This document shows, piece by piece, positions 2,902 through 45,218 of a stretch of 64,000 bases of DNA. The notes beneath the pieces were generated by a model. That model was not told where the DNA came from, ran no database searches, and was given only the letters and a program-made list of their open reading frames with translations. The position numbers and the translations under genes were made by a program. The stretch spans positions 154,566,001 through 154,630,000 of the forward strand of contig JBNRSN020000007.1 in the NCBI GenBank assembly GCA_051313645.2, written 5' to 3'. The DNA is from Centroscyllium fabricii. Lineage: Eukaryota. Positions within the stretch are counted from its first letter, which is position 1, and the number at the start of each line of letters is the position of its first letter.

Positions 2902-3706
2902 ATAGAGTCTATGACTCTATGACTCTATATTGCATCTGCCACATTTCTGTCCAATCACCCAACCTGTCCAAATCATCCTTGAGTTTCTCGGTATCCTCCT
3001 CGCAGCACACACGCCCACCCAGCTTTGTGTCGTCTGCAAACTTGGAGATATTACATCTAGTTCCCTTATTTAGATTATTAATGTATATTGTGAATAGCTG
3101 GGGTCCAAGGACCGATCCCTGTGGTACTCCACTAGTCACTGCCTGCCACTCGGTAAAAGACCCGTTAATTCCTACTCTCTGCTTTCTGTCCGCCAACCAG
3201 TTCTCTATCCAAGTAAATACCTTGCCCCCAATCCCACGTGCCTTAACTTTACATGCTAATCTCTTATGCGGCACATTATCGAAAGCCTTTTGAAAGTCCA
3301 AATACACCACATCCACTGGTTCTCCCTTATCTATTTTCCCAGTTACATCTTCAAAAAACTCCTGTAGATTAGTCAAGCATGATTTACCTTTTGTAAATCC
3401 ATGTTGACTTTGCCCTATCCTGTCACTACTTTCCAAGTGCTCAGCTATTACATCATTTATAATGGGCTCTAGCATTTTCCCCAGTACCGATATCAGGCTT
3501 ACCAGTCTGTAATTCCCCACTTTCTCTCTGCCATCCTTTTTGAATAGTGGGGTAACACTAGCTACCCTCCAATCCATGGGTACAGTTCCAGATTCCAGCG
3601 AATGTTGGAAGATGATCAGCAATGCATCTACTATTTATAGGGCCACTTCGTTAAGTACCCTAGGATGTACATTATCAGGCCCTGGTGATTTATTGGCCTT
3701 CAATCC

Positions 3707-5362
3707 AGTATTTGTAGGGATATGGTGTTGGGGACCTTGAAGAGATTAAAGACCGACAAATCCCCAGGGCCTGATAATCTACATCCTAGGGTACTTAAGG
3801 AAGTGGCCCTGGAGATAGCAGATGCATTGCTGATCATCTTCCAGAACTCGATAGACTCTGGAACAGCACCCATGGATTGGAGGGTAGCTAATATTACACC
3901 ACTATTCAAAAAAGGGGGTAGAGATAAAGTGGGGAATTATAGACCATTAAGTCTGACATTGGTAGGGGGGAAAATGCTAGAGTCCATTATTAAAGATGTA
4001 ATATCAGTACACTTGAAAAACAGTGACGGGACCGGACAGAGTCAATATGGATTTACAAAAGGTAAATCGTGCTTGACTAATCTACTGGAATTTTTTGATG
4101 ATGTAACTGGTAAAATAGATTGGGGAGAACCAGTAGACGTGGTGTATTTGGACTTTCAGAAGGCTTTCGATAAAGTCCCACATAAGAGATTCGCATGCAA
4201 AATTAAGGCTCATGGGATTGGGGGCAAGGATTTGACTTGGATAGAGAACTGGTTGGCAGACAGAAAACAGAGAGTTGGAATAAACAGGTTGTTTTCCGAG
4301 TGGCAGGCAGTGACTAGTGGGGTACCGCAAGGATTGGTCCTAGCACCCCAGCTGTTCACAATATATATATTAATGATCTGGATGAGGGAATTGGATGTAA
4401 TATCTCCAAATTTGCAGATGACACAAAGCTGGGTGGCGGGGGGTGGGGGGGGGGGGTTGTTATGCTGTGAGGAGGATGTCAAGAAACTCCAATGCGATTT
4501 GGACAGGTTGGGGGATTGGGCAGATACATGGCAAATGCACTATAATGTGGATAAATGTGAGGTTATCCACTTTGGTGGCAAAAACAGGAGGGCAGATCAT
4601 TATTTGAATGGCAATAGATTGGGAGATGGGGAAGTGCAAAGAGACCTGGGTGTTCTTGTGGAGCAGTCACTGAAGGTAAGCATGCAGGTGCAACAGGCGG
4701 TTAAGAAGGCAAATGGTATGTTGGCCTTCGTAGCAAGAGGGTTCGAATATAAGAGCAAGGATGTCTTGCTGCAGCTCTACAGGACCTTGGTGAGACCACA
4801 CCTCGAGTATTGTGTGCAGTTTTGGTCGCCTCATCTGAGGAAGGACATTCTTGCCATTGAAGGAGTGCAGCGAAGATTCACCAGGCTGATACCTGGGATG
4901 GCAGGAATGAAGTATGGAGAGAGATTGAGTCGATTGGGCTTATACGCACTGGAGTTCAGACGATTGAGAGGGGATCTCATCGAAACCTATAATATTCTTT
5001 CAGGCCTGGACAGACTGGAGGCAGGAATGATGTTCCCGATGGTCGGGGAGTCCAGAACCAGGGGCCATAGTCTAAGGATAAGAGGAAAGCCATTTTGGAC
5101 TGAGATGAGGGGGAATTTCTTCACCCAGAGAGTGGTGAACCTGTGGAATTCTCTGCCACAGAGGGCGGTGGAGGCCGGTTCATTGAATATATTCAAGAAG
5201 GAGTTGGATATATTTCTTCAGGCTGAAGGAATCAAGGGATATGGGGAGAAGGCAGGGACAGGGTACTGAATCTGAAAGATCAGTCATGATCTAATTGAAT
5301 GGCGGAGCAGGCTTGAAGGGCCATACGGCCTACTCCTGCTCCTATCTTCTATGTTTCTATGT
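3707..5362 (+). mobile_element. CR1 LINE 3' part inserted antisense into the host CR1
   Basis: RT ORF 3722-5269, 3' UTR, and TTCTATGTTTCTATGT tail. Host CR1 stops at 3706 and resumes at 5363. Confidence 0.92.
3722..5269 (+). pseudogene. CR1 ORF2 reverse transcriptase remnant
   Basis: KSPGPD, NYRPLSL, YLDFQKAFD, GVPQG, RPHLEYCVQFW. The KFADD segment (~4408-4422) is out of frame between compensating frameshifts, the second near the poly-G at 4430-4456. Confidence 0.88.
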
Positions 5363-5853: not shown

Positions 5854-6090
5854 TGTGGTAATTGTGTAATAACCACTGTATATAGTTGCTGGTTCACCTG
5901 TACTGTATTGCAGGCCAGGTCAGCCACACCCCTAACTCCTCCCCTCAGGTCGGTGTATATAGGTGAGCGCTGTCCTGCCCCCGCTCATTCTTCACCTTGA
6001 CCTCATCAGGAGACCAGCTCCATTCTTAGTTAATAAAAGCCTGTAGTTTAGGTAACTACTCGACTTTGTGTATTAATTGACGATACGTCA
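5854..6090 (+). mobile_element. Solo LTR related to the LTRs of Gypsy element 2
   Basis: TGTGGTAA...GATACGTCA, 5-bp TSD ATTCC (5849-5853, 6091-6095), TATATA box and AATAAA. Shares blocks with the reverse complement of 18217-18498. Confidence 0.9.
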
Positions 6091-7351: not shown

Positions 7352-9428
7352 AGAGACTGGGAGGCCTTTAGACCGTAGGGCTAACAGGATGGCCTTCCAG
7401 ACCGTGGCATTATCCCTCTCCACCTGTCCGTTCCCCCGGGGGTTGTAGCTGGTAGTCCTGCTAGTAGCGATGCCTTTCGCTAGCAGGAACTGATGCAGCT
7501 CGTCACTCATGAAGGAGGCCCCCCGGTCGCTATGAATGTAGCTGGGGTAGCCGAACAGGGAGAAAATGCTGTGGAGGGCCCTTAATGACGGTGGCAGAGG
7601 TCATGTCCGGGCAGGGGATGGAGAAGGGGAAACGCGAGTACTCGTCGATAACATTCAGAAAGTACATGTTTCTGTTTGACGAGGGAAGGGGCCCTTTAAA
7701 ATCGACGCTGAGTCGCTCAAAGGGGCGGGTGGCCTTGATCAGGTGCGCCCGGTCTGGCCGAAAAAAGTGCGGCTTGCACTCCGCACAGACCTGGCAGTTT
7801 CTGGTCATGGTCTTGACCTCCTCGATGGAGTAGGGAGGTTGCGGGACTTAACAAAGTGGACCAACCTGGTGACCCCCGGGTGGCAGAGGTCATTGTGCAG
7901 GGTTTGGAGATGGTCCACTTGTGCGCTGGCACATGTACCGCGTGATAGGGCATCTGGGGGCTCATTGAATTTCCCGGGCCGGTACAAAATATCATAATTG
8001 AAAGCGGAGAGCTCAATTCTCCACCTCAGTATCTTGTCGTTCTTGATTTTACCCCGCTCTTTGTTGTTGAACATAAAAGCGACTGAGCGTTGGTCAGTCA
8101 GCAGGGTAAATCATTTGCCGGCCAGGTAGTGCTTCCAGTGTCGCACTGCTTCAACAATGGCCTGGGCCTCCTTCTCGACTGAAGAGTGACGGGTCTCGGG
8201 GCCCTGGAGGGTACGTGAGAAGAAGGCCACGGGTCTGCCCGCCTGGTTAAGGGTGGCGGCCAGGGCAATGTCCGATGCATCGCTCTCGACCTGGAATGGG
8301 ATGGACTCGTCCACAGCGTGCATCGTTGCCTTTGCAATGTCATCCTTAATGCCGCAGAACGCCGCGCGGGCATCTGCTGACAGGGGGAATGAGGTCAATT
8401 TAAGTAGTGGGCGGGCTTTGTCCGCATAGTTGGGGACCCACTGGGCATAATAGGCGAAGAACCCCAGGCACCTTTTGAGGGCCTTGAGGGAGTGGGGGAG
8501 GGGAAGCTCCAGGAGGGGGCGCATGTGGTCCGGGTCGGGACCGATGACCCCATTCTCCACAACACTGCCGAGGATGGCGAGGCGGGTGGTCCTGAACACA
8601 CATTTTTCCGTGTTATATGTCAGGTTCAGTGTTTTGGCGGTGTGGAGAAATTTCTGGAGGTTGGCGTCATGGTCCTGCTGGTCCTGGCCACATATTGGTC
8701 ACGTTATCGAGATACGGAAATGTGGCCCGCAGCCCGTACTGATCGACCATTCGGTCCATCTCCCTTTGGAAGACCGAGACACCATTCGTGACGCCAAACG
8801 GGACCCATAGGAAGTGATAGAGGCGGCCATCAGCCTCGAAGGCCGTATAGAGACGGTCCTCTGGGCGGATGGGGAGCTGGTGATACGCGGACTTCAGATC
8901 TATAGTTGAAAAGACCCGAAACTGCGCGATCTGATTTACAATGTCCGCTATCCGGGGAAGGGGGTAAGCGTCTAACTGGGTGAACCGGTTAATGGTCTGG
9001 CTATAGTCCACTACCATTCGGTTCTTAGCTCCGGTCTTCACCACCACTACCTGCGCCCTCCAAGGGCTGTTACTGGCCTCGATGACCCCCTCCCTCATGA
9101 GGCGCTTCACCTCGGACTTGATGAAGTCCATGTCCCCGGTACTGTAGCGCCTACTTTTGGTGGCGATGGGCTTGCAGTCCGGGGTGAGGTTAGCAAAGAG
9201 CGAGGGAGGGGCGACCTTAAGGGTTGAGAGGCCACAGGTAGCGCGCTGAGGATGCTGCGAGGAGCGCTGGTTGCAGACCGTGAGCGGGGGAAGGGGCCCA
9301 CCGTATGCCATGGTAAAGCTCTGGAGGTGGCACTGGAAGTCCAGGCCCAGTAATAATGGAGCGCAGTGCTGCGGCAGCACGAATAATTTGAAATTGCTAA
9401 AGTGCACGCCCCGTACCGTTAGAGTCAC
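7352..9428 (-). pseudogene. pol: pol (RT-RNase H-integrase) of Gypsy 1, several frameshifts
   Basis: ORF pieces 8667-9428, 8111-8599, 7805-8074 and 7530-7808 with IDLKSAYHQ, PFG, YLDN, SVDFKGP, IDEYSRF. Confidence 0.9.
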
Positions 9429-10612
9429 CGCGCAACGTCCGCAGATTCCACGGATTCCGACTTTGATGCCATAGAGATCTTTTGGCTCGCCGGCGTAACC
9501 TTAAGAGAGAGGCGCCTTACCGTTTCTGGGTGGACGAAACTCGCCGTACTCCCGCTGTCGAAGAGGCACTCGATGCTCCGCCCGTTCACTTCCACTGTCA
9601 TCATCGATCTGCTGAGTGGTTGTGCCTTGTTCTTATCCAAGTTGATGGATGCCAGTGTAGGGTCGGTCGAGTCGTTTTGATCCGTTGAGAGGTCGTCTGG
9701 GGCCTGGTCCCAAGATGGCTGCCGCCATGTGTTGTACTGCGGAAGGGGTGGCTGAGACCAAGATGGCGTCTGCTGCCACGCGGTGGGCTGTGTTGAAGAT
9801 GGCTGTGTCCAAGATGGCTGCCCCCATGGCCCACATGCGGCACTGCCCGGTTTCGATTGCAGCGTTGCAGTTGCTCTGCAGACTTTGGCATAGTGTCCTT
9901 TCTTGCCGCATTTCGAGCAGGCCGCGTCTTTTGCAGGGCAGTTCCGTCTCGGGTGCTGAGACTGCCCACAGAAGTAACATTTGGCCGTCTTAGAATGAGC
10001 GGCCGCAGTCATCTCTTCCGCCGGTCGCGGCTCCGGCGATGTCCAAGTTGTCGGGGCTGGGCCCGCGTAGTTGCCGAAATATGATGACAGATTCAGCGAT
10101 GCCACATCCAGTGCTTTGCCCAGATCCGCTGTCGCCTGCAGGTCAAGGCCGTTCTGTTCTAACAGCCTTTGGCGAATATAGTCCGACCTGAGGCCAGTTA
10201 CATACGCGTCCCTGATCAGGCTGTCCACGTGGACCTGGGCCGACTGCGATCTGCAGTTACAGGCCTGGGAGAGTACTCTCAGCGCGCGTATGAACTCCAC
10301 GCTGGACTCACCTGGTTGCTGTCTTCTGGTAGCCAGGAGGTGTCTGGCGTGGACGATGTTGGGTGCCCGGTTGTACTCCGCTTTGAGGATCCAGATTGCA
10401 TCTAGGTACGATGATGCGTCTACGATCATGGAGTATACCTGAGGGCCCACCCGGGCATTGAGGAGATGCCGTTTGTCCTCCTCGGTCGTGACGACCGCCA
10501 CGTTCACATTGATGAACGCATCAAAGCAGTCGAACCAGTGCGTAAAGGTATTTGATGCACCTGGTGTCCGGGGTTCCAGCTCGAACGTTGCTGGTTTGAG
10601 CATCAATTTCAT
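9425..10612 (-). pseudogene. gag: gag-protease of Gypsy 1
   Basis: ORF with CYFCGQSQHPRRNC and CSKCGKKGHYAKVC, then LFDSGS. First ATG at 10612, ~22 nt after the LTR. Confidence 0.88.
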
Positions 10613-10634
10613 CGTCAAATTTAGCTAATAAAAT

Positions 10635-10923
10635 TGTTACCGAATTAACGACCTCGGAGACGAGTTATTAAGAGGTGAAAAATACAGGCTTTTATTAGCT
10701 AAAGTTGGACATGCACCAGCTAGTCGACCGTCCCCAGGAATGGCCGCGGAAAGGGAGACGGCCGCTTATGTACCTGGTCCTGGGAGGGAGGAGTCACAGG
10801 CGGTGCCAGCATGGGCATGTCCAGGTGATCACACACAAATAACTATAATACAACATGGTTTAAGGGTGGTTACAGTGAGTTACAATAATATACAGATATA
10901 TACATAAAGAGTGGTTTACCACA
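10635..10923 (-). repeat. 5' LTR of Gypsy 1 (289 bp)
   Basis: Sense TGTGGTAA...GGTAACA. TATA-like TACATAAG at ~10766-10773. AATAAA at ~10691-10696. Confidence 0.88.
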
Positions 10924-11876
10924 GATCCCACATCTTTAGAGTAATCCCACACCTGTAGACTGATCACTAACCTGTAGAGTGATCCCACATCTGTAGAGTG
11001 ATCCCTAAAATGTAGAGTGATTCCACTCCTGCAGATTGATCCCTCACCTGTAGGATGATCCCACACCTGCAGAAGGATCCTTCACCTGTAGAGTAAACTC
11101 ACACCTGTAGAGAGAACCCTAACCTGTAGTGTGATTCCACACCTGTAGTGTTATCCCTATACTGTAGCATGATTCCACACCTGTAGATTGATCCCTCACC
11201 TGTAGAGTGATCACTCACCTGAAAAGTGATCCCATGTGTGCAGAGTGATCACCCACCTGTAGAGTGATCCCACACTTGTAAAGTGATCCCACATGGGTAG
11301 AGTGATCCCTCATCTGAAAGTGATCCCTCATCTGTAAAGTGATCCCTAGCCTGTAGAGTGATCCCTCACCTGTAGTGTGATCACACACCTGTAGAATGAT
11401 GCCACACCTGTAGAATGATCCTCACCCACAGAGTGATCCTCACCTGAAGAGTGATCCCACTAATGTAGAGTGTTCCCACACCTGTAGAATTATCCCTAAA
11501 CTTTAGAATGATTCCACACATGTAGAGTGAATCCACACCTGTAGAATGATCAGTAACCAGTAGAGTGATATCACACCTGTAGAGTGATTCCACACCTGTA
11601 GAGTGTTTCCACACCTGTAGAGTGAATCAGATGTAGAGTGACCCCACACATATATGTTCCCACCCCTGTAGAGTGATCACACATATATAGAATGGTCCCT
11701 CACCAGTAGAGTGATCCCACACCTATAGAGTGCTCCCCCACCTGTACAGTGATCCCTCACTTGTAAAATGATCCCCCACCTGTAGAGTGATTCCTTATCT
11801 GTATAGTGATCCCTCACCTGCAGAGTGAGTCCTCCCCTTTAGTGTGACCCCACTCTGGTAAATTGCTCCCCCACCT

Positions 11877-14800
11877 TTTTTTTTGTCCGTTTCTATTGGA
11901 AACCGCGCCGGATTTGGGAGCACGCAGGACTGCAGGAAACGCAGCTTGTGGCGGCCCGGCCCCCGACGCCGCCTGGTACAGCCGGCCCTGACCCCCGGCA
12001 CCGCCCGGGACACCACCCGGTACAGCTGGCCCGGCCCCGACACCGCCCGGTACAGCCGACACCGACCCCGACAACGCCCAGGACACCGACACTGCCCGGT
12101 ACATCCTTTGACAAGATGGCGGCGCGCATAGACGCAGCGGCTCAGTGCTCTCCTTTTCGGTGCTTCGTTTGGCTGTTTGTGTGTGTGTTGATACTTGTCC
12201 CGACAGCATCCTGCTGGGTGAACAACGTCTACAGCCGGCACGATCTCCTAGGAATAGGATTACATAGCGAGCGGGATGTTACAGCCGAGTTTCTCCGCTC
12301 CCGCGGCATCCCGGTGGATATCGGCAGGCGCCCCGGCTCTCCGTGGATTACCATCTCCGCGGGAAGGCGACGAAGGTGGCGCAGGGAAAGGAGGCAAAAG
12401 CGAGGCTGCAGAGCCGGCGTGCTGGTGAGGCTACGGAGACGGCCACACAAACCGCCGCTTCCTAGTGTCTTCCTCGCCAACGCAAGATCCCTCGCTAACA
12501 AAATGGATGAGCTGAAACTACAGGTTGCAATGAACAACATGCTGAAGGACAGCTGCATTCTGCTCTTCACAGAGACCTGGCTTCATTCATCCATTCCAGA
12601 CACAGCTATTGAGCTAGCAGGCCGCACAGTACACCATCATGACAGGACCAGGGACTCCGGTAAGAGCAGAGGAGGGGGGTTATGCATCTATGTGAACAAC
12701 AGCTGGTGTACAAATACTAAGACTGTAAGCAGCCACTGCTCCCCGGACCTGGAGTATGTGACTGTTAAATGCAGGCCCATATATCTTCCTCGGGAGTTCA
12801 CTGTTGTCATGATAACTGCTGTGTATATTCCACCAGATGCTAATGCTAGCTCGGCCCTTGGACATTTACATGAAACCATTAGCAGTCAACAGAGTATGTA
12901 TCCTGAGGCTGTTCACATTATTGCAGGGGACTTTAACCATGCTGATTTAAAGGCAGTGCTCCCCAAATTCCATCAACACGTTAAGTGTGCTACCAGGGGA
13001 GCAAATACACTGGACAAGGTCTACTCTAACATCAAGCTGGGCTTTAGGGCTAAGCCACTACCACACCTGGGCCAGTCAGACCACATGTCCCTGCTCCTGA
13101 TTCCAGCATATACCCCCCTCAGGAAAAGTGCTCTTACCATATCTAGATCTGTAAAAACCTGGCCCGAAGGTGCCTTTCAACAACTGCAGGACTGCTTTGA
13201 GTCAACAAACTGGGATGTCTTCGAACATCAGGACCTGGAGCAGAACACAACAGCTGTCCTGGGATACATCAAGTACTGCATGGACACTGTCACTGTGGAC
13301 AAGTGCATCCGGGTTTATCCCAACAGAAAGCCCTGGATGACAAAAGAAGTGCAGTGCCTGCTCAGGGAGAGGAACACCGCCTTCAGGTCTGGTGATGGGG
13401 CACTATACAGTGCTGCCAGAGCCAATCTGAAGATGGGCATCGGAGCGGCCAAGGCTGCTTACAGAAGGAGGATTGAGGACTGTTTCCAGAGCAACGACTC
13501 CAGGCAGGTGTGGCAGGGGGTCCAGCACATCACTAACTACAGACCCAGCAACCTCTCGGCTGATGACGGTGACGCCTCACTGGCAGAGGAGCTGAACCGC
13601 TTCTTCGCCCGCTTTGAGGTGGAGTCACCGGAGGTAGCCACACTGAACCCACCAGCCCACAGCAGTTATGTCCTCACGGTGGAGGAGTATGAGGTGAGGC
13701 GCACGCTGAGGGCCGTGAACCCGAGGAAAGCTGCGGGACCTGACGGCGTCTCGGGACAGGGGCTGAGGGTCTGTGCAGATCAGCTGGCAGGGGTCCTCAC
13801 CAAGATCTTCAACCAGTCCCTGTCTCAGGCGGCTGTCCCACCCTGCCTGAAGGCCTCCACAATCGTCCCACTCCCGAAGAAGAATGCCATTAGCAGCCTG
13901 AACGACTACCGTCCAGTAGCACTTACACCTATTATCATGAAGTGCTTCGAGAAACTGGTCCGGTCCCACATCATCTCAAATCTCCCACCCAGGTTTGATC
14001 CTCACCAGTTCGCCTACAGAGCTAAGAGGTCCACGGAGGACGCCATAGCCACAGCTCTCCACTTTGCCATGTCCCATCTGGAGCAGCAGGGGAGCTACGC
14101 ACGGCTGCTCTTTGTGGACTTCAGCTCGGCATATAATATCATCCTCCCCAACAGACTGGTGACCAAACTGACACACCTGGGAATATCCCACTCCATCTGC
14201 CTCTGGGTTCAGGACTCCCTGTCGAATCGCTCCCAGAGGGTGAGGGTAGGCCCCCACATCTCCTCAGACCTCAGCCTCAGCACTGGCTCCCCTCAGGGCT
14301 GTGTGCTGAGCCCCCTACTCTACACCCTCTACACCCACAGCTGCACCCCCGCCCACTCCAGCAACATCATCATCAAGTTCGCTGATGATACTACTGTGGT
14401 GGGGCTCATCTCTGGGGGGGATGAGTCCGCATACCGGGATGAGGTGGAGCAGCTGTCAGTGTGGTGTACAGAAAACAACCTGGTCCTGAACACTACTAAG
14501 ACTAAGGAGCTGATTATAGATTTTGGAGGAAAAGAACGAACATTCAGCCCCTGTTCATCGGCGGGGACTGTGTGGAGAGGGTCTCAGATCTCAAGTTTCT
14601 GGGTGTTTACATAGAGGATGACCTGAAATGGAGCGTCAACACCACTGCTATCACCAAGAAGGCACAGCAGAGACTGCACTTCCTGAGGGTTCTCAGGAGT
14701 TACCACCTCACACAAAAACTGCTTGTGTCCTTCTATCGTTGCTCCATAGAGAGCATTCTGACCTACTGCATCTGTGTGTGGTTCTCCAGCTGCACAGCTG

Positions 14801-15290
14801 CAAACAGGACAGCGCTCCAGAGGGTCGTCACCACAGCCCAAAAGATTACTGGCTGCCCTCTCCCCTCCCTGGAAGATCTGCACAGCTCCCGCTGTCTCAG
14901 GAAAGCACAGAGTATTCTTAGGGACGCATCTCACCCCGGACATTCCCTCTTTGAACTGCTGCACTCGGGCAGACGCTTCAGGACACTGAAAGCACGGACC
15001 AATAGATTAAAGAACAGTTTTAATGTCAGAGCCATAACCGCACTAAACACAGAAAAAAGCTTGAACATCTTGTAAATATTTTGATCTGGATCGTGCAATA
15101 CCTGTAGAATGTGAATGTGTGTGTGTAATGTGTTTCCTGTCTCCTCTTTGAAGCTGCTAATTATTTATTTCATAGTTTTTAATTATTTGTTTTTTTAGAT
15201 AGTTTTATGTTTCTCTTTCTTGCAATTTTAAGGATTGCATTTCAATTTTGTTGTACTTGTACAATGACAATAAAGACTTATTATTATTAT
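11877..15290 (+). mobile_element. Near full-length Rex1/Babar-type LINE
   Basis: APE domain (LANARSL, FTETWL, GDFNH, LDKVY, SDH) plus RT (PQG, KFADD). 3' CAATGACAATAAAG and (TTA)n tail. Possible TSD ACCT (11873-11876, 15291-15294). Confidence 0.88.
12116..15075 (+). pseudogene. Rex1-type endonuclease-reverse transcriptase ORF with one frameshift
   Basis: Open from ATG 12116 to ~14525. An apparent 1-bp deletion separates it from the C-terminal ORF ending at 15075 (…IQPLFIGGDCVERVSDLKFLGV…). Confidence 0.88.
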
Positions 15291-18075: not shown

Positions 18076-18498
18076 ATTCTACACCTGTAGCTTGATCTCA
18101 CACCTGTAGAATAATCCCTAACCAGTAGAGTGATTCCACACTTTTAGAGTGACTCCGCACCTGTAGCGTGATCCCACACCTGTAGAATGGTCCCTAAGCT
18201 GTAGAGTGATTCCACATGACGTATCGTCAATAAGACAAAGACGAGTAGTTACCTTAACTAGAGGCTTTTATTCACTTTACAATGGAGCTACTCTCCAGTC
18301 GAACATTGAGTACATAATGAATGGGGGCAGGTCAGACCTCACCTATAAGGCGCTCACCTGAGGGGAGGAGTTAGAGGTGTGGCTGACCTGACCTCGCGAC
18401 AGTGTCGTTATACAAAACTATATACAATGCACCCAGCCACTATACATGCTGGTCTGTAGTCTGCTCAACTATATATACTTGTAATCATGATTACCACA

Positions 18499-18512
18499 TT
18501 CACCCCTTCTTT
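18499..18512 (-). promoter_or_regulatory. Polypurine tract of Gypsy 2
   Basis: Sense AAAGAAGGGGTGAA immediately before the TG of the 3' LTR. Confidence 0.85.
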
Positions 18513-18597
18513 GAAAATTGAGTATGGCGGGGTGAATGGACAGAACCTGTTAATGCAAAGAAAGAAAAAAAATTGTATATTATTGTATGAGTCCAGC

Positions 18598-21500
18598 TCA
18601 ACAGTTCACAATGAGTCTCTCCGGCGGTCGTGTCTGCCTTGAGGACCGCCGGGGTTCTGGTAGCGGCGCTGGTGCCGGTTGTGGCGGCGGGGCCGGGTCC
18701 TCCGGCAGCTGTGTCTGTGGTGTGGCATCTGGTTCTTGGTCCTCAACTGATAGTGTCGGGGGCCCCGGTGTGTGCGTGTGCCTAGGCCAGGATCTGGTGG
18801 GTTGTGGTTGGTGTGTAGGCCAGTGGTCGGTAGGCGGTGGCTGGTCGGGCTGAGGCTCGACCAGGGGCTCTGCTGTGGTGCTCCCGGCGGGTGCTAGGTC
18901 CCTGATGGAAACTGTGTCCTCGCGCCCGTCTGGGAACTGCACGTAGGCGTACTGCGGGTTGGCGTGCAGCAGCTGCACCTTTTCCACCAGGGGGTCGGTC
19001 TTATGGCCGCGGACATGTTTTCTAAGTAAGACCAGCCCCGGCATCGTGAGCCACAGTGGGAGTGCTGTCCCCGAAGTCGACTTCCTGGGGAATGAAAACA
19101 GCAAGTCGTGAGGTGTGGCATTTGTAGCCGTACACAGCAGAGAACGGATGGAGTGGAGGGCGTCTGGGAGGACTGCCTGCCAACGGGACACTGGAAGGCC
19201 TCTGGACTTCAGGGCCAGGCTGACCGCCTTCCAGATGATCCCGTTCTCCCTTTCTACCTGGCCGTTCCCCCGGGGGTTGTAACTGGTCGTTCTGCTTGAG
19301 ACAACCCTTTTCTGAAGCAGAAACTAACGCAGTTCGTCGCTCATGAACGATGTCCCCCGGTCGCTATGGATGTAGCTGGGGAGACCGAAAATGGCGAACA
19401 CCGTGGTGAAGTGTTTGATCACCGTTGCGCACATCATATCTGGGCAGGGGAAGGCAAAGGGGAAGCGGGAGAACTCGTCTACGACCGTGAGAAAGTACGA
19501 GTTGCGGTCGGTGGAGTGGAGGGGGCCTTTGAAGTCCACGCTTAGACGTTCAAAGGGGCGGGTGGCCTTAATGAGGTGTGCCGTGTCTGGCCTGTAAAAT
19601 TGGGGTGTGCACTCGGCGCAAACAGGGCACTCTCAGGTCATAGCCTTGATCTCCGTGATGGAGCAGGGGAGGCTACGAGATTTAACGAAATGGGCAAGTC
19701 TGGTGATACCCGGGTGGCAGAGGCGATCGTGGAGTTCCTTCAGCCGGTCTAGCTGGGCACTGGCGCACGTTCCACTGGACAGTGCGTCCGGGGGTTCATT
19801 GAGTTTGCCTGGTCGGTAAAGAATGTCGTACTCGTAGGTTGAGAGCTCGATCCGCCATCGCAGGATCTTATCATTCTTGATTTTACCCTTTTGTTTATTG
19901 TTAAACATAAAAGCTACCGACCGTTGGTCGGTGAGCAGGGTAAAACGCTTACCGGCCAGGTAATTACGCCATTAGCGCACGGCCTCCACGATGGCCTGGG
20001 CCTCCTTTTCCACTGCAGAGTGGCGAGTTTCGGGTCCCTCTATGGTGCGGGAGAAAAACGCTATGGGCCTGCCTGCCTGATTCAGGGTGGCGGCAAGGGC
20101 AAAGTCCGAAGCGTCACTCTCCACCTGGAAAGGGATGGACTCATCAACGGCGTACATGGTCGCCTTGATAATATCTTCCTTGATCCGGGCGAACGCCGTT
20201 TGGGCTTCTACCGAGAGGGGGAAGACGGCAGCCTTAAGGAGCGGTCTGGCCTTATCCGCGAACTGGGGAACCCATTGCGCGTAATAGGAGAAAAATCCCA
20301 GACATCTACTCAGGGCTTTGGGGTTGTGAGGTAGGGGCAGTTCCTGTAAGGGGCGCATACGCTGTGGGTCGGGGCCAAGGACTCCGTTTTCCACCACGTA
20401 TCCGAGGATGGCGAGCCGATCTGTACTAAAGATGCACTTGTCTTTATTGTACGTGAGATCGAGCCGTTTTGCCGTGTGGAGGAATTTAGCCTGGTTGGCA
20501 TCATGGTCCTGCTGGTCATAGCCGCAGATGGTCACGTTGTCCAGGTAGGGGAAAGTGGCCTGCAACCCATTCTGGTCAACCATGCGGTCCATCTCCCTTT
20601 GGAATACCGACACTCCGTTGGTCACGCCGAAGGGGACCCGGAGGAAGTGGTAGAGCCGACCGTTCGCCTCGAAGGCGGTGTACAGGCAGTCGGCTTTCCG
20701 GATCGGGAGTTGGTGATATGCCGACTTAAGGTCGATTGTGGAGAAAACCTTATACTGGCCGATCTGGTTAACCATTTCCGAGATGCGGGGAAGGTGGTAG
20801 GCGTCGAACCCGGTGTAGCGGTTAACGGTCTGGCTGTAGTCGATCACCATCCACAGTTTCTCGCCAGTCTTAACCATTACGACCTCGGCCCGCCAGGGGC
20901 TGGTGCTGGCTTCAATTATCCCCTCCTGCAGCATACGCCCGACCTCCGACCTGATAAATGCCGGATCCCCCGCACTGTAACGCCGACTCCTGTTAGCAAT
21001 GTGTTTGCAGTTGGGGTCGAGTTTGGCGAACAGCGAGGGGGGGTCGACTTTCAGGGTGGATAGGCCGCAAGTCGGGCTCTGCTTTAGGAAATGATTGTCC
21101 CGGCTACTGACGGCGAGGGGGGGCAGGGTCCCGCCGAACTCCATTGTCACGCTCTTCAGGTGGCACTGGAAATCCAGTCCCAGTAAGACTGGGGTGCACA
21201 ACTGCTAGAGTACGTACAGTTTAAAATTACGGTACACACAGTCCCTGACTGTGAGCGTGATGGAGCAGTAGCCGGTGACGTCCGCCGTGTGCGACTTTGA
21301 AGCAAGGGAGATTTGGTAGTGTCGGGGTGAATGAAGCTCTCTGTGCTTCCGGTGTCGAACAGGCAGTTGGTGATATGGCCGTTAACTTTAATCCCCATCA
21401 TGGAATTTGATAGGGTGTGCGGCCTAACCTGGTCGACCGTGGCTGAGGCCGAAGTGTGTGTGTGTGGGCCCTCCGCTAGCTGGGGCCGTGCACAAGATGG

Positions 21501-22766
21501 CGGTGCCCGTGATTCGCACGCGGCCGACCGCGGTGGACAAGATGGCGGCGCCGGGGGGTCGCACATGGCTGGCCATTGAAGACAAGATGGCGGCGCCCGT
21601 GATTCGCACGCGGCCGACCGCAGTGGACAAGATGGCGGCACCGGGGGATCGCACATGGCTGGCCGCTGAAGACAAGATGGCGGCACCCGTGATTCGCACG
21701 TGGCGGGCCGCGGTGGACGCCGTGGCGGTGCCCGTGGTTCGCACGCGGCGGACCGCGGTGGCCAAGTTGGCGGCGCCCGTGATTCGCACGCAGCGGGCCG
21801 CGCTGGGTGAGTTGCTGGCGTTGTGGGGTCGCCCATGGCCGGCCGCGGCCGTCATTGGCGTGGCGGTGCCCGTGCCGTGTGCGCGGCCGGCCTCTGCCAT
21901 ATCGGGGTGGGAGATGGGGGCGCTTGTAATCTACCCCCGGACCGCTGCTTACCTGAGGCCAAGGGATGGCGTTGGAGCTCTCGCAGGCCGCGCTGTTGTG
22001 TCTGGAGCTGGTCGCTGGGGCCGATTTGCAGACCCTGGCGTAGTGTCACTTTTTTACTGCATTTCTCGCAGGTCGCGGTCCTCGCAGGGCATTTCGCTCG
22101 CGGATGCAGTCCCTGGCTGCAGAAGTAGCATTTTCTGTCCGCTGGCGTCTTCGCAGCTGCCGCTGCCAGTGTGGGGATCTCTACCTGTCGTGGGACCGCC
22201 CAGGAATCAAGGGTGGCGTGTGGGCCTTGGCCGCTATACGCCTCTAGCCTGCGGCGTGCTCCATCCACCGCGTTAGAGATGGATATCGCCTCCTCCAGCG
22301 ATAAAGTCTCTTTTTCCAGCAACCGCTGGCGGGCCTGGCTGGATCTGATCCCCGTCACGTAGGCGTCTCGAACGAGGAGATTCTTCTCCTCCTGCGCCGT
22401 TCGTGCCTTGCATTCACAGGCCCGGGCGAGGGCTTGAAGCGCCAACAAATATTGTTCATTAGACTCACCGAGCCATTGTTGTCTGGTCGCCAGCACGTGT
22501 CTGGCATAGACCGAGTGGACCGGGCGCACGTAGCATGCCTTCAGTTTGTCCACGGCCTCTTTGTATGTTGTTGCATCGCAGATGAAGGAGTACACCCGGC
22601 TGGAGATCCTTGATGAGAGAACGTGGAGTTTGTTCCCGTCAGTCGTCGCCTTGGCGGCCGTCATGTATGCCTTGACAAGGCTGAACCAATGTTCAAACGT
22701 ATTGGCGGCATCTGGATCCTGTGGACTAATATCCAGCTTTTCGGGTTTCACAGCGCCGCTCTCCAT
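18598..22766 (-). pseudogene. gag-pol of Gypsy 2, with stops and frameshifts
   Basis: ORF pieces 21852-22766 (gag), 21156-21836 (repeat linker and LFDTGS), 19972-21201 (RT/RH, YLDN), 19633-19908, 19324-19539 (IN core), 18598-19191 (IN C-terminus, Pro-rich, no chromodomain). Confidence 0.92.
21493..21805 (-). repeat. 45-bp coding tandem repeat (~7 units) in the gag-protease linker
   Basis: CAAGATGGCGG starts at 21493, 21538, 21583, 21628, 21673, with degenerate copies at 21718 and 21763. Encodes 15-aa CESRAPPSC.. units. Confidence 0.9.
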
Positions 22767-25111
22767 TTCGAAAATTTAAAGTGTATAAAATTGACGTATC
22801 ATCAATAAGACAAAGACAAGTAGTTACCTTAACTAGAGGCTTTTATTCACTTTACAATGGAGCTACTCTCCAGTCGAACATTGAGTACTGAATGAATGGG
22901 GGCTGGTCAGACCTCACCTATAAGGTGCTCACCTGAGGGGAGGAGATAGAGGTGTGGCTGACCTGACCTCGCGACAGTGTCATTATACAAAACTATATAC
23001 AATGCACCCAGCCACTATACATGCTGGTCTGTAGTGTGCTCAACTATATATACTGGTAATCATGATTACCACACCACACCTGTAGATTGATTCCATACCT
23101 GTAGACTGATCCCTCAACTCTAGAGTAATTCCACACCTGTAGAGTGATTCCACACCTGTAGATTGAATCCCACATCTGTAGAGTGATCCCACAACTGTGG
23201 AAATATCCTGCACCAGTAGAGTGATCCCACACCTGTCGAGTGATCCCACACATGTTGTGGGATCACTCACATGTAGATTAATCCCACACATTTAGAGTGA
23301 TCCCACACCTGTAGAGTGATCCCACACCTGTAGTCTGATCCCTCAACTGTAGAGTAATTCCACACCTGTGGTGATTCCACACCTGTAGATTGAATCCCAC
23401 ATTTGTAGTGATCCCACAACTGTGGAAAGATCCTGCACCAGTTGAGTGATCCCACATCTGTAGAGTGATCCCACACATGTTGTGTGATCACTCACATGTA
23501 GATTAATCCCACACCTTTAGAGTGATCACACAATTGTAGAGTGATCCCACATCTGTAGATTGATCCATCACCTGTAGATTGATCACTCACATGTAGAGAT
23601 TCCTCACCCATAGAGTGATCGCTTAACTGTAGAGTGATGCCACACCTGCAGATTAATTCCACATCTGTAGAGTAATACATCAGCTATAAAGTGATCACAC
23701 ACCTGTTGTGTGATCCTACAACTGTAGAGTAACCCCTAACCAGTAGAGAGATCCCACAGCTGTAGAGTGATCACTTATCTGTGGAGTGACCCCACACCTG
23801 TAGAACAATCCCTTACCTGTAGAGTGACCCCACAGCTTTAGAACAATCCTAATCCTGTAGAATTATCCCTCAGCTTTAGAGTGACCCCACACCTGTAGTG
23901 AGATCACTCAACTGTATTGTGAACGCTGTCCTCTAGATTCATCCTCATTTGTAGAGTGATCCCTCACCTGTAGAGATATCCCTCAGCTTTAGAGTGATGC
24001 AGTAACAGTAGCGTGTTCCCTTACCTGCAGAGTGATCCCACAGCTGTAGAGTGTGCCACACCTGCAGAATGATCCCTCAGCTGTAGGTTGATCCCACACC
24101 TGTAGAGTGATCCATCACATGTAGAGTGCGTCCAAACCTGTAGAGTGATCCCACAGCTGTCGAGTGATCCCTTGCCTGTAGAGCCATCCCTCACCTGTAG
24201 ATTGATCCCACACCTATAGAGTGATCCCTCACCTGTAGAGTGGTTCCAAACCTGTAGTGATCCTATAGCAGTAGAGTGATGCAATACCAATAGAGTGATC
24301 CCTTACCTGTAGATTGATCCCACACCTGTAGAATGATCCCACACCTGTAGAGGGGACCCTCACCTGTAGGGTGAACCCACACCTGTGGAGGGATTCCACT
24401 TATTTAGAGTGATCCCTAAACATAGAAACATAGAAGATAGTAGCAGGAGTAGACCATTCGGCCCCTCAAGCCTGCTCCGCCATTCAATGCAATCATGGCT
24501 GATCATTGAATTTCAGTACCCTGTCCCTGCCTTCTCCCCATATCCCTTGATCCCTTTAACCTTAAGAAATATATCCAACTCTTTCTTGAATATATTTAAT
24601 GAATTAGCCTCTACTGCCTTCTGTGGTAGAGAATTCCACAGGTTCACCATTCTCTGGGTGAAAAAATTCCTCCTCACCTCTGTCCTAAATGGCTTACTCC
24701 TTATCCTTAGACTGTGACCCCTGGTTCTGGACTTCTGGACTCCCCCCTCCCCCCCCCACCCCCCGCATCAAGAACATCCTTCCTGCATCTAGTTTGTCCA
24801 GTCCTGTTAGAATTTTATAAGTTTCAATGAGATCCCCTCTCATTCTTCTAAACTCCAGCGAGTATAAACCCAATTGACCCAATCTCTCCAACATCATTCC
24901 TGCCATCCCAGGTATTAGCCTGGTGAATCTTCGCTGCACTCCTTCTGTGGCAAGATCATCCTTCCTTAGATAAGGCAACCAAAACTGTACACAATATTCA
25001 AGATGTGGTATCACCAAGGCCCTGTAAAACTGCAGCAAGACATCCTCGTTCCTGTACTCAAACCCTCTCGCTACAAAGGCCGAGCATTTTAAGAGGAAGA
25101 ATACAAAAAAA

Positions 25112-43492: not shown

Positions 43493-44990
43493 CTCACCTG
43501 TAGTGTGATCCCTCAAATGTAGAGTGAATCCTCACATGTAGGCTGATCCCTCACTTTTAGAGTGAAACCACACCTGTAGAGTGATCCCATACTTTTAGAG
43601 TGATCCAACATCTGTAGAGTGACCCCTCACCTGTAGGTTGGTCACTCATCTATAGAGTGTTCCCACACCTGTAGAGTGACCCTTCACTTGTAATTTGATC
43701 CCTGATCTGTGTAGTGATCCCACACTTTTAGAGTGATCCCACATCTGTAGAGTAACCCCTCATCTGTAGTTTGCTCACTCATCTGTAGAGTGATCACGCA
43801 CCTGCAGCGTGATGCCTCACCTGTAGAGTGATTCCAGACCTTTAGAGTGATCCCACACTGGTAGAGTGATTCCTCACCTGTAGGGTGATCCCACACCTGT
43901 ATAGTGCTCCTATACCTGTAGAGTGATCCATCACCTGTAGAATGATCCCACACTTGTAGTGATCCCACACCTGTAGAGTGAGCCGTCCCCTGTTGAGTGA
44001 TCCCTCATCTGTAGAGTGATCCCTCGCCTGTAGCGTAATGCCTCACCTGTAGAGTGATCCCTCACCTGTACTGTGATCCCCCATCTGTAGACTGATCCCA
44101 GAACTGTAGTGTGATCCCACAGCTGTAGACTGATCCCAGAACTGTAGAGTGATCCCTCATCTTTAGGGTGATCCTACACTTGTAGAGTGATCTCTCACCT
44201 GTAGAGTGATCCCACACCTGTAGTGTGATCCCTCAAATGCAGTGAGATACCACATCTGTAGAGTGATCGCTCCACTGTAAAGTGAATCCTCACATGTAAG
44301 CTCTTCCCTCATCTGTAGAGTGTTCCCTCACCTGTAGCGGGATCCCTCACTTGTAGTGTGATCCCACACCTGTAGCGTGACTCTTCAACTGTAGGTTGAT
44401 CACTCACCTGTAGAGTGATCCTATACCTGTCGAGTGATCCTATACCTGTCGAGTGATCCATCAGCTGTAGAGTGATCCACCACCTGTAGAGTGATCCATC
44501 ACCTGTAGAGTGATCCATCACCTGTAGAGTGATCCATCACCTGTAGAGTGATCCCACACCTATAGAGTGATCCCACACCTGTAGATTGATCCCACACTTG
44601 CAGAGTGATCCCACACTTGCAGAGTGATCCCTCCCCTGTTGAGTAATCCCTCACCTGTAGAGTGACCTCTCCCCTGCCGGCTGATACCACACATGTAGCA
44701 CAATCCCACAACTGTAGAGTGATCCCATGCCTGAATAATGATACCACGCCTGTTGAGCGATCCCTCACCTGTAGAGTAATCCCTCACCTTTAGAGTGATC
44801 CTACACTTGTAGAATGAGCTCAAGGACTGTAGAGTGTTCCCTTATCTCTAGGGTGATCGCTCATCTGTAGAGTGATCCCAAAAATGTAGCTTGATCCCAC
44901 ACCTGTAGAGTGATCCGTCACCTGTAGAGTGATCCAACACCTGTTGAGAGATGCATCACCTGTATCTCAACTGTAGTGAGATCCCACACC

Positions 44991-45218
44991 TGTGGTAATA
45001 CAGAACAGCTTCTAGCTTGGAGTTTTTGCTTACATCACTTCTGGGGACCTATGAACTTTGTATGATGTCACTTCCTGTAATTAGCCCAGTATAAATACTG
45101 GGCTACTCAGTATGATTTAGTAAGAGGCATGGTGCAGACCTCTTTTGTATGTATCACAGTTATAAGTTGATTAAAGCTTACCTTAAGTTCATATCGTGTA
45201 AGTTTCATTCTTACAACA
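44991..45218 (+). mobile_element. Solo LTR (228 bp), different family
   Basis: TGTGGTAA...TTACAACA termini, TSD ACACC (44986-44990, 45219-45223), TATAAAT at 45090, ATTAAA at ~45170. Confidence 0.85.

Follow-up and report, generated by a model that had tools for sequence, protein, structure and literature searches.

We found that the members of a clade of Ty3/Gypsy LTR retrotransposons carry, just behind the 5′ LTR and at the position of a primer-binding site (PBS), a short sequence complementary to a segment of their own LTR, and that this LTR/PBS pairing is real, clade-wide, and covarying. Judging from the sequences, the mechanism behind the pairing is likely self-priming. Most such retrotransposons start copying from a bound host tRNA, and self-primed reverse transcription is, to our knowledge, proven only in fission-yeast Tf1-type chromoviruses. 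Within the available text of the literature we covered, whose scope left out most subscription journals, Repbase, and GyDB, only Tf1/sushi, Tcn1, and TAR turned up as described cases of self-priming, and we found no description of the clade reported here.

The window in which the pairing was noticed is a 64,000-nucleotide stretch of the Centroscyllium fabricii genome (contig JBNRSN020000007.1, positions 154,566,001 to 154,630,000). A 19-bp satellite makes up most of it, LINE fragments are also present, and all three of its LTR insertions (5854-6090, 10923, and 18212-23078) lie in or at the edge of the satellite, which may reflect either target abundance or target preference. Elsewhere in the window are a perfect 49-nt inverted repeat with zero spacer (103-200; a fold-back element or an assembly artifact), an inverted duplication of 625 nt that is 86% complementary around a 38-nt spacer amid LINE-like repeats (3081-4368), frames of 923 and 189 amino acids on the plus strand that by eye resemble a non-LTR endonuclease-RT (11843-15075), and an ARAGORN tRNA-Cys call on the minus strand within the satellite region, which is probably spurious (44919-45005).

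The Gypsy 2 element (23073-18217, minus strand) is a Ty3/Gypsy LTR retrotransposon by its TG..CA LTRs, TSD, polypurine tract, and PR-RT-RH-IN order, the last supported by the domain order of an intact relative, and the best solved-structure match is Ty3 Gag-Pol (E 1e-66). A tandem repeat expansion occupies its Gag-protease junction (21490-21800), and similar repeats are found in shark relatives. The features of the element are as follows.

23074 to 23078, minus strand: upstream copy of the 5-bp TSD, the same 5 bp standing at both element ends
22792 to 23073, minus strand: 5′ LTR, 282 nt, TG..CA, 96.5% identical (10 differences) to 18217-18498
22916 to 22923, minus strand: TATA-like motif, by resemblance only
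22887 to 22899, minus strand: initiator-like motif, a putative start of transcription that lies 46-56 nt upstream of where the arm ends
22841 to 22854, minus strand: LTR arm and putative self-primer, ending in an AATAAA signal plus one A
Junction 22841/22840, minus strand: putative cut
22825 to 22840, minus strand: small hairpin immediately 3′ of the arm that begins with GCC and has a predicted pairing probability of about 0.6
22791, minus strand: offset, the single base that separates the LTR end from the paired site
22777 to 22790, minus strand: post-LTR site at the PBS position, complementary to the LTR arm
18598 to 22766, minus strand: gag-pol, split over several frames, with the domains arranged as Gag, PR, RT, RNase H, IN
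18499 to 18514, minus strand: polypurine tract, then AA, before the 3′ LTR
18217 to 18498, minus strand: 3′ LTR, with an identical arm copy at 18279-18266
18212 to 18216, minus strand: downstream copy of the 5-bp TSD

In Gypsy 2, 22790-22777 pairs with 22854-22841 at 13 of 14 positions, the sole mismatch being at 22784, and there is no TGG primer site. The coordinates, letters, and degree of complementarity given by the first-pass annotation, and the lack of TGG that it recorded, thus all held on the sequence. A second element, Gypsy 1 (10923 to about 7350), belongs to a different family (73.6% identity over 1,978 nt of pol), and the window also holds a solo LTR of a third subfamily, the arm of which ends at 6038 and shows a third version of the core.

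10635 to 10923, minus strand: Gypsy 1 5′ LTR, its ends inferred from TG..CA, the sole Gypsy 1 LTR in the window
10690 to 10703, minus strand: Gypsy 1 LTR arm
10620 to 10633, minus strand: Gypsy 1 post-LTR site
5854 to 6090, plus strand: solo LTR with 5-bp TSD, 77-79% identical to the Gypsy 2 LTR

The Gypsy 1 arms (10703-10690 with 10633-10620) are complementary at all 14 positions, and the 1-nt offset that had been proposed as common to both elements is there, given the inferred end of the Gypsy 1 LTR. The cores had also been said to differ on both sides: compared in register, both strands do change at pair positions 8, 9, 12, and 13, but the alignment of CACTT against TAGCT that had been offered is one base out. 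An AAT/ATT extension of the Gypsy 2 stem fared worse, being missing from the predicted folds, and the wider set of families does not keep pairing beyond position 14-15.

Folding predictions give the pairing helix in both window elements, and in the 198-nt 5′ RNA of Gypsy 2 its predicted probability is 0.76-1.0 at 12 of 14 positions. A stem score as good as the element's own was nevertheless reached by 2/200 dinucleotide shuffles of Gypsy 2 (0/200 for Gypsy 1), and the fold z over 90 nt was just -0.92. Taken alone, then, Gypsy 2 is marginal evidence, and the strength of the case comes from its relatives.

Those relatives were fetched with a Gag alignment (4 loci from genome contigs and 80 from metagenomes), a search that selects on protein and not on pairing. 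The Gag 5′ end was present in 74 of the 84 loci, and the other 10 were left out of the counts. The 76 loci kept, the two window elements included, fell into 20 families at 80% nucleotide identity; we counted families rather than loci because many loci are repeat assemblies of one insertion, and scored pairing on the first member of each. The end of the LTR is fixed by a 3′ LTR in Gypsy 2, L007, L010, L012, L014, L088, and L090 and is inferred from CA elsewhere. The pairing was tested in the window elements and in metagenome or MAG contigs only. Eukaryote-type Gypsy elements in bacterial and archaeal MAGs (L002-L005, L086-L090, and L092-L109) most likely reflect host contamination of the bins.

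We found that 18 of the 20 families pair in the same register, one base after the terminal CA (CA+1), where an unconstrained stem search also placed the start of the stem in 17/18 representatives. By locus, 62 of the 76 score at least 10/11, and the 14 others include interrupted or decayed copies. Reading the LTR of L019 from the opposite end of its contig adds a 19th pairing family, at 12/12 visible bases. L032 falls within the clade and pairs at 8/11 only, and the head of its contig and its 3′ LTR mismatch; it could be decayed, chimeric, or a true exception. For L046 and L062, the register that came out is probably spurious. A later search with RT added five loci, two of them with the Gag 5′ end; these two (L088 and L090, one family) pair at 14/14 in the predicted register, with a 3′ LTR fixing the end. 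No family (0/20) has TGG within 8 nt after the LTR.

Across positions 1-13 of the 18 families, 234 positions comprise 230 Watson-Crick pairs, 4 mismatches, and no G-U pair, while predicted U5 helices of the same RNAs, a crude control, have 22 G-U among 182 pairs. Beyond position 13 the pairing falls away, to 14, 10, and 7 of 18 at positions 14, 15, and 16. The sequences that pair are diverse: there are 17 distinct 13-mers among the 18 families, and all four Watson-Crick pair types occur at positions 5, 7, 8, and 12, the last of which is paired in 17/17 families against 0.30 for swapped partners. In a swap test, at least 12/13 was reached by 17/20 families with their own partner and by 2/380 swapped combinations, both of which join two families that share one 13-mer. 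Since the register had been chosen for maximal pairing, swapped partners were given equal register freedom as a control. The observed cross-family score was reached in 0/100,000 permutations, with families taken as independent, and likewise in 0/100,000 when only positions outside the hexamer were counted.

The first-pass annotation had inferred a pairing maintained by compensatory change and had foreseen, as the outcome against it, that other families would keep only the TTTTAT/ATAAAA part. Instead the variable core covaries, and this covariation across families supports the inference. What covariation shows is that the match is maintained; it does not show independent selection of both sides. 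If the primer were copied into the new PBS during replication, the match would renew itself mechanically, and the zero G-U count would fit such a process.

The first-pass annotation had suggested checking whether the family consensus restores 14/14, and we compared contigs from four public runs over 22600-23070. The Watson-Crick partner at 22784 accounted for 431,966 of 437,512 depth in X1 (98.7%), 27,573 of 28,185 in X5 (97.8%), 15.7 of 20.7 in X10 (76%), and 50.6 of 50.6 in X11 (100%). Since 76-100% of contig depth pairs there in the four runs, the mismatch is private to this aged copy. In each of the four runs, 25-38% of depth carries a variant of the arm at 22846, and no partner change is among the rows listed (40 of 64), although the LTR depth is unphased and takes in solo and 3′ LTRs; this variant counts against a neat picture of the pairing.

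The site itself has a weak consensus, A-T-Y-T-W-N4-R-C-W, with C at position 10 in 17/18 families. The arm ends in AATAAA or ATTAAA in 13/18 families, lies 23-71 nt from the end of the LTR, and is followed by RCC in 14/18 families and by R-Y-Y in 17/18. A second helix after the arm, which these bases open, has a predicted probability above 0.5 in 14/18 families, with a mean of 0.71 against 0.35 in shuffled loops; it is weak in the remaining 4/18, and per-family significance is rare. The first ATG stands 16-33 nt past the LTR. In both window elements, TATA-like and initiator-like motifs place the transcription start about 50 nt upstream of the arm end; motifs of this kind are scattered in the other families. 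Pyrimidine tracts with a terminal CAG, which resemble 3′ splice or trans-splice acceptors, occur 15-45 nt before the arm end in L005, L016, L019, and L049.

Given that the position, polarity, and fixed offset of the site are PBS-like, and that only the element's own LTR tracks it, we favor self-priming. It seems probable from these features that the post-LTR 13-mer is the primer-binding site and that the element's own RNA would be the primer, in a tRNA-independent, Tf1-like manner. The transcript would fold so that the LTR arm pairs with the post-LTR site, and a cut at the 3′ end of the arm, most likely by the element's RNase H, would leave a 3′-OH facing the LTR, from which RT would extend across the offset base, U5, and R. 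The model for the proposed cut is Tf1, whose self-priming and primer cut are described in the available text of PMC5341516 and PMC4600332.

In the rival that survives best, the helix does nothing except mask the 5′ LTR poly(A) signal against premature termination, and something else is used for priming. The poly(A) hexamer at the end of most arms speaks for such masking, as do a partner found only behind the 5′ LTR, which would leave the 3′ signal free, and a helix predicted in both window elements. However, pairing is perfect in the 5/18 families that have no such hexamer in the arm, which argues against masking alone, and masking requires neither a fixed 1-nt offset nor strict Watson-Crick pairs. 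The offset stays fixed though the distance from arm to LTR end varies, and a primer needs a fixed offset where a masking helix does not. The clade would, moreover, be left with no primer site at all. We thus consider masking unlikely as the sole function but plausible as a second role of a self-priming helix, which might also serve to hide the 5′ LTR poly(A) signal in most families.

Alternatively, the element could prime itself with RNA from elsewhere: the arm copy in the 3′ R (forming an RNA circle), a second genome, or a short transcript of R alone that terminates at the 5′ LTR. The arm is identical in both LTRs, a start about 50 nt upstream would put it inside R and so at both RNA ends, and the Ty3 initiation complex uses 3′-end sequences, according to the available text of PMC5371799. 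On the other hand, the 5′ arm sits just 23-71 nt from the site and the predictions give their local fold a high probability, which should let it form first, and we judge an outside source quite unlikely. A host RNA as primer, whether an internal tRNA fragment or some other small RNA, with a secondary LTR match, is very unlikely: half-tRNA priming is known in some Ty1/copia lineages (PMC6317226, available text) and the site has a weak consensus, T-Y-T-W-N4-R-C-W, but the 17 different 13-mers each follow their own LTR. Chance complementarity of AT-rich sequence near AATAAA, to which the shuffle and z results for Gypsy 2 alone might point, is refuted by the swap and permutation tests, including the one outside the hexamer, and by GC-containing cores that pair too (L003 and L027), and it has virtually nothing left to recommend it.

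Returning to self-priming by the element's own 5′ arm, the absence of G-U pairs suggests that either the new site is copied with the primer as template or the geometry has to be strict. The Tf1 primer is reportedly not removed, as the title of a paper has it. Neither Ty1 nor Ty3 copies its PBS from the primer (PMC5371799, available text), and templated renewal of the match therefore cannot be assumed. The same text puts the two active sites of Ty3 RT about 13 bp apart and its thumb about 10 bp from RNase H; such a footprint would match both the strict 13 bp and the G-C pair that is nearly invariant at position 10, as a fit and not as a test.

If transcription starts about 50 nt upstream, as the motifs suggest, the primer may be internal to R and present at both RNA ends instead of standing at the RNA 5′ end, an arrangement that is unlike Tf1 and that permits the rival of a 3′ copy. 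This motif-inferred start, the 8/11 pairing of L032, the 22846 variant, and the weakness of the second helix in 4/18 families all speak against the self-priming reading. We also considered, and did not adopt, a Tf1-like primer of 11 nt that would begin at a start site, given that pairing is strict to 13 and the outer end of the perfect run is mostly U. A primer made by splicing, considered because AG-GT follows the arm in many families, is not needed: the arm is contiguous in the DNA, and the AGG pairs with CCT after the arm.

The best Gag matches are in sharks and rays, and named protein hits extend the clade to crustaceans, cnidarians, nematodes, flatworms, echinoderms, and an octopus. Its Gag has two CCHC-like knuckles, and the intact relative L009 encodes Gag-PR-RT-RH-IN in a single 1,187-aa frame. 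No chromodomain was detected in L009 at E up to 0.1 or in the Pfam lists of the best 120 RT/RNase H relatives (63-100% identity), while the same library found one in 2/12 outgroup proteins. In an RT tree, 15 members were monophyletic (100/100) on a long stem among 16 outgroup rows. Mag-like rows were the nearest group in a small tree, without support (63/86), and a grouping with chromodomain-bearing outgroups was not rejected (p-AU 0.07 and 0.06) in a tree lacking Tf1, sushi, Cigr-1, and MolGy references. Cigr-1, similar in size and Gag, is a candidate relative.

Three known groups were rejected as a home for the clade: Gmr1, since the integrase is not upstream of RT; the Mag lineage on its PBS, a TGG-type PBS being found in 0/20 families; and Saci2/lennie, which has a tRNA-Leu PBS and mostly 4-bp TSDs against 5-bp TSDs and no TGG here. 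Scans of viral contigs for relatives returned only Mag-like outgroups or nothing, and four peptide motifs were absent from the supplement files searched of PMC6238403. The RT catalytic motif is YxDN in place of YxDD in 11/14 clade rows and in Gypsy 1, and YLDD is kept in L019, L032, and L086.

Window 19813 to 20958 and 8667 to 9500, minus strand: YxDN motif rows, with the motif also in L002, L004, L007, L009, L017, L018, L020, L028, L030, and L090

An Asp-to-Asn change at D211 of Ty1 keeps polymerase activity in vitro (PMC2148107, available text), and a natural clade with a YxDN RT motif deserves a look. One broader scenario, which we put forward tentatively and think rather doubtful, is that the clade evolved self-priming independently of Tf1/sushi by way of the poly(A)-signal region, so that one 13-bp helix would silence the 5′ poly(A) site and also be measured and cut by RT/RNase H inside R; the primer would be copied into the next PBS, making the match self-renewing, and YxDN may belong to the same adaptation.

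If self-priming is true of this chromodomain-less animal clade, tRNA independence arose repeatedly, and the elements would be beyond the reach of host defenses that act through tRNA fragments. It would also account for the scoring of such elements as incomplete by annotation pipelines in which a tRNA PBS is required. Because the geometry is fixed (13 bp, a 1-nt offset, and a conserved junction), short RNAs would allow a direct test of the cut site and primer length.

Among known systems, Tf1/Tf2 of S. pombe, Tj1 of S. japonicus, and the Tf1/sushi chromoviruses share with our clade the Ty3/gypsy domain order, the lack of a tRNA site, a site beside the 5′ LTR complementary to an LTR segment, and a further helix adjoining the primer duplex (PMC4600332, PMC5341516, and bioRxiv 10.1101/2022.12.06.519325, available text). 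Unlike that group, in which a chromodomain is usual at the integrase C-terminus, the clade lacks one, its Gag has the two CCHC-like knuckles, and its leader spans just 16-33 nt. The clade has a strict duplex of 13 bp, whereas the Tf1 primer duplex is reportedly 11 nt. The arm usually coincides with a poly(A) signal and may sit about 40 nt inside the RNA, whereas the Tf1 primer is the RNA 5′ end. Of the three-duplex "pretzel" of Tf1, one adjoining helix is predicted, in 14/18 families.

The Tcn1 chromoviruses and the TAR Ty1/copia elements (Houba and Osr-1) are predicted self-primers by the same sequence criterion, at least 10 bp of complementarity starting 0-5 bp after the LTR (PMC6317226, available text); those are plant and fungal lineages, while the clade described here is animal by its named protein hits. 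Saci2/lennie of flatworms are also animal Gypsy elements with variable PBS sequences (PMC12471100, available text), but in lennie the PBS is of the tRNA-Leu type, most TSDs are 4 bp, and Gag is without similarity outside flatworms (PMC4558846, available text), whereas the Gag of our clade is widespread and its TSDs are 5 bp. Mag-lineage Gypsy elements have a similar two-knuckle Gag. The rows that we take to be Mag-like (L001, L091, L092, and L093) have CA followed by TGG, unlike the clade, and the RT of L001 is just 27% identical. In HIV-1, the poly(A) hairpin likewise covers AAUAAA in the 5′ LTR by RNA pairing, and it lies within R at both RNA ends; in our clade, by contrast, the partner lies outside the LTR, at the position of the PBS.
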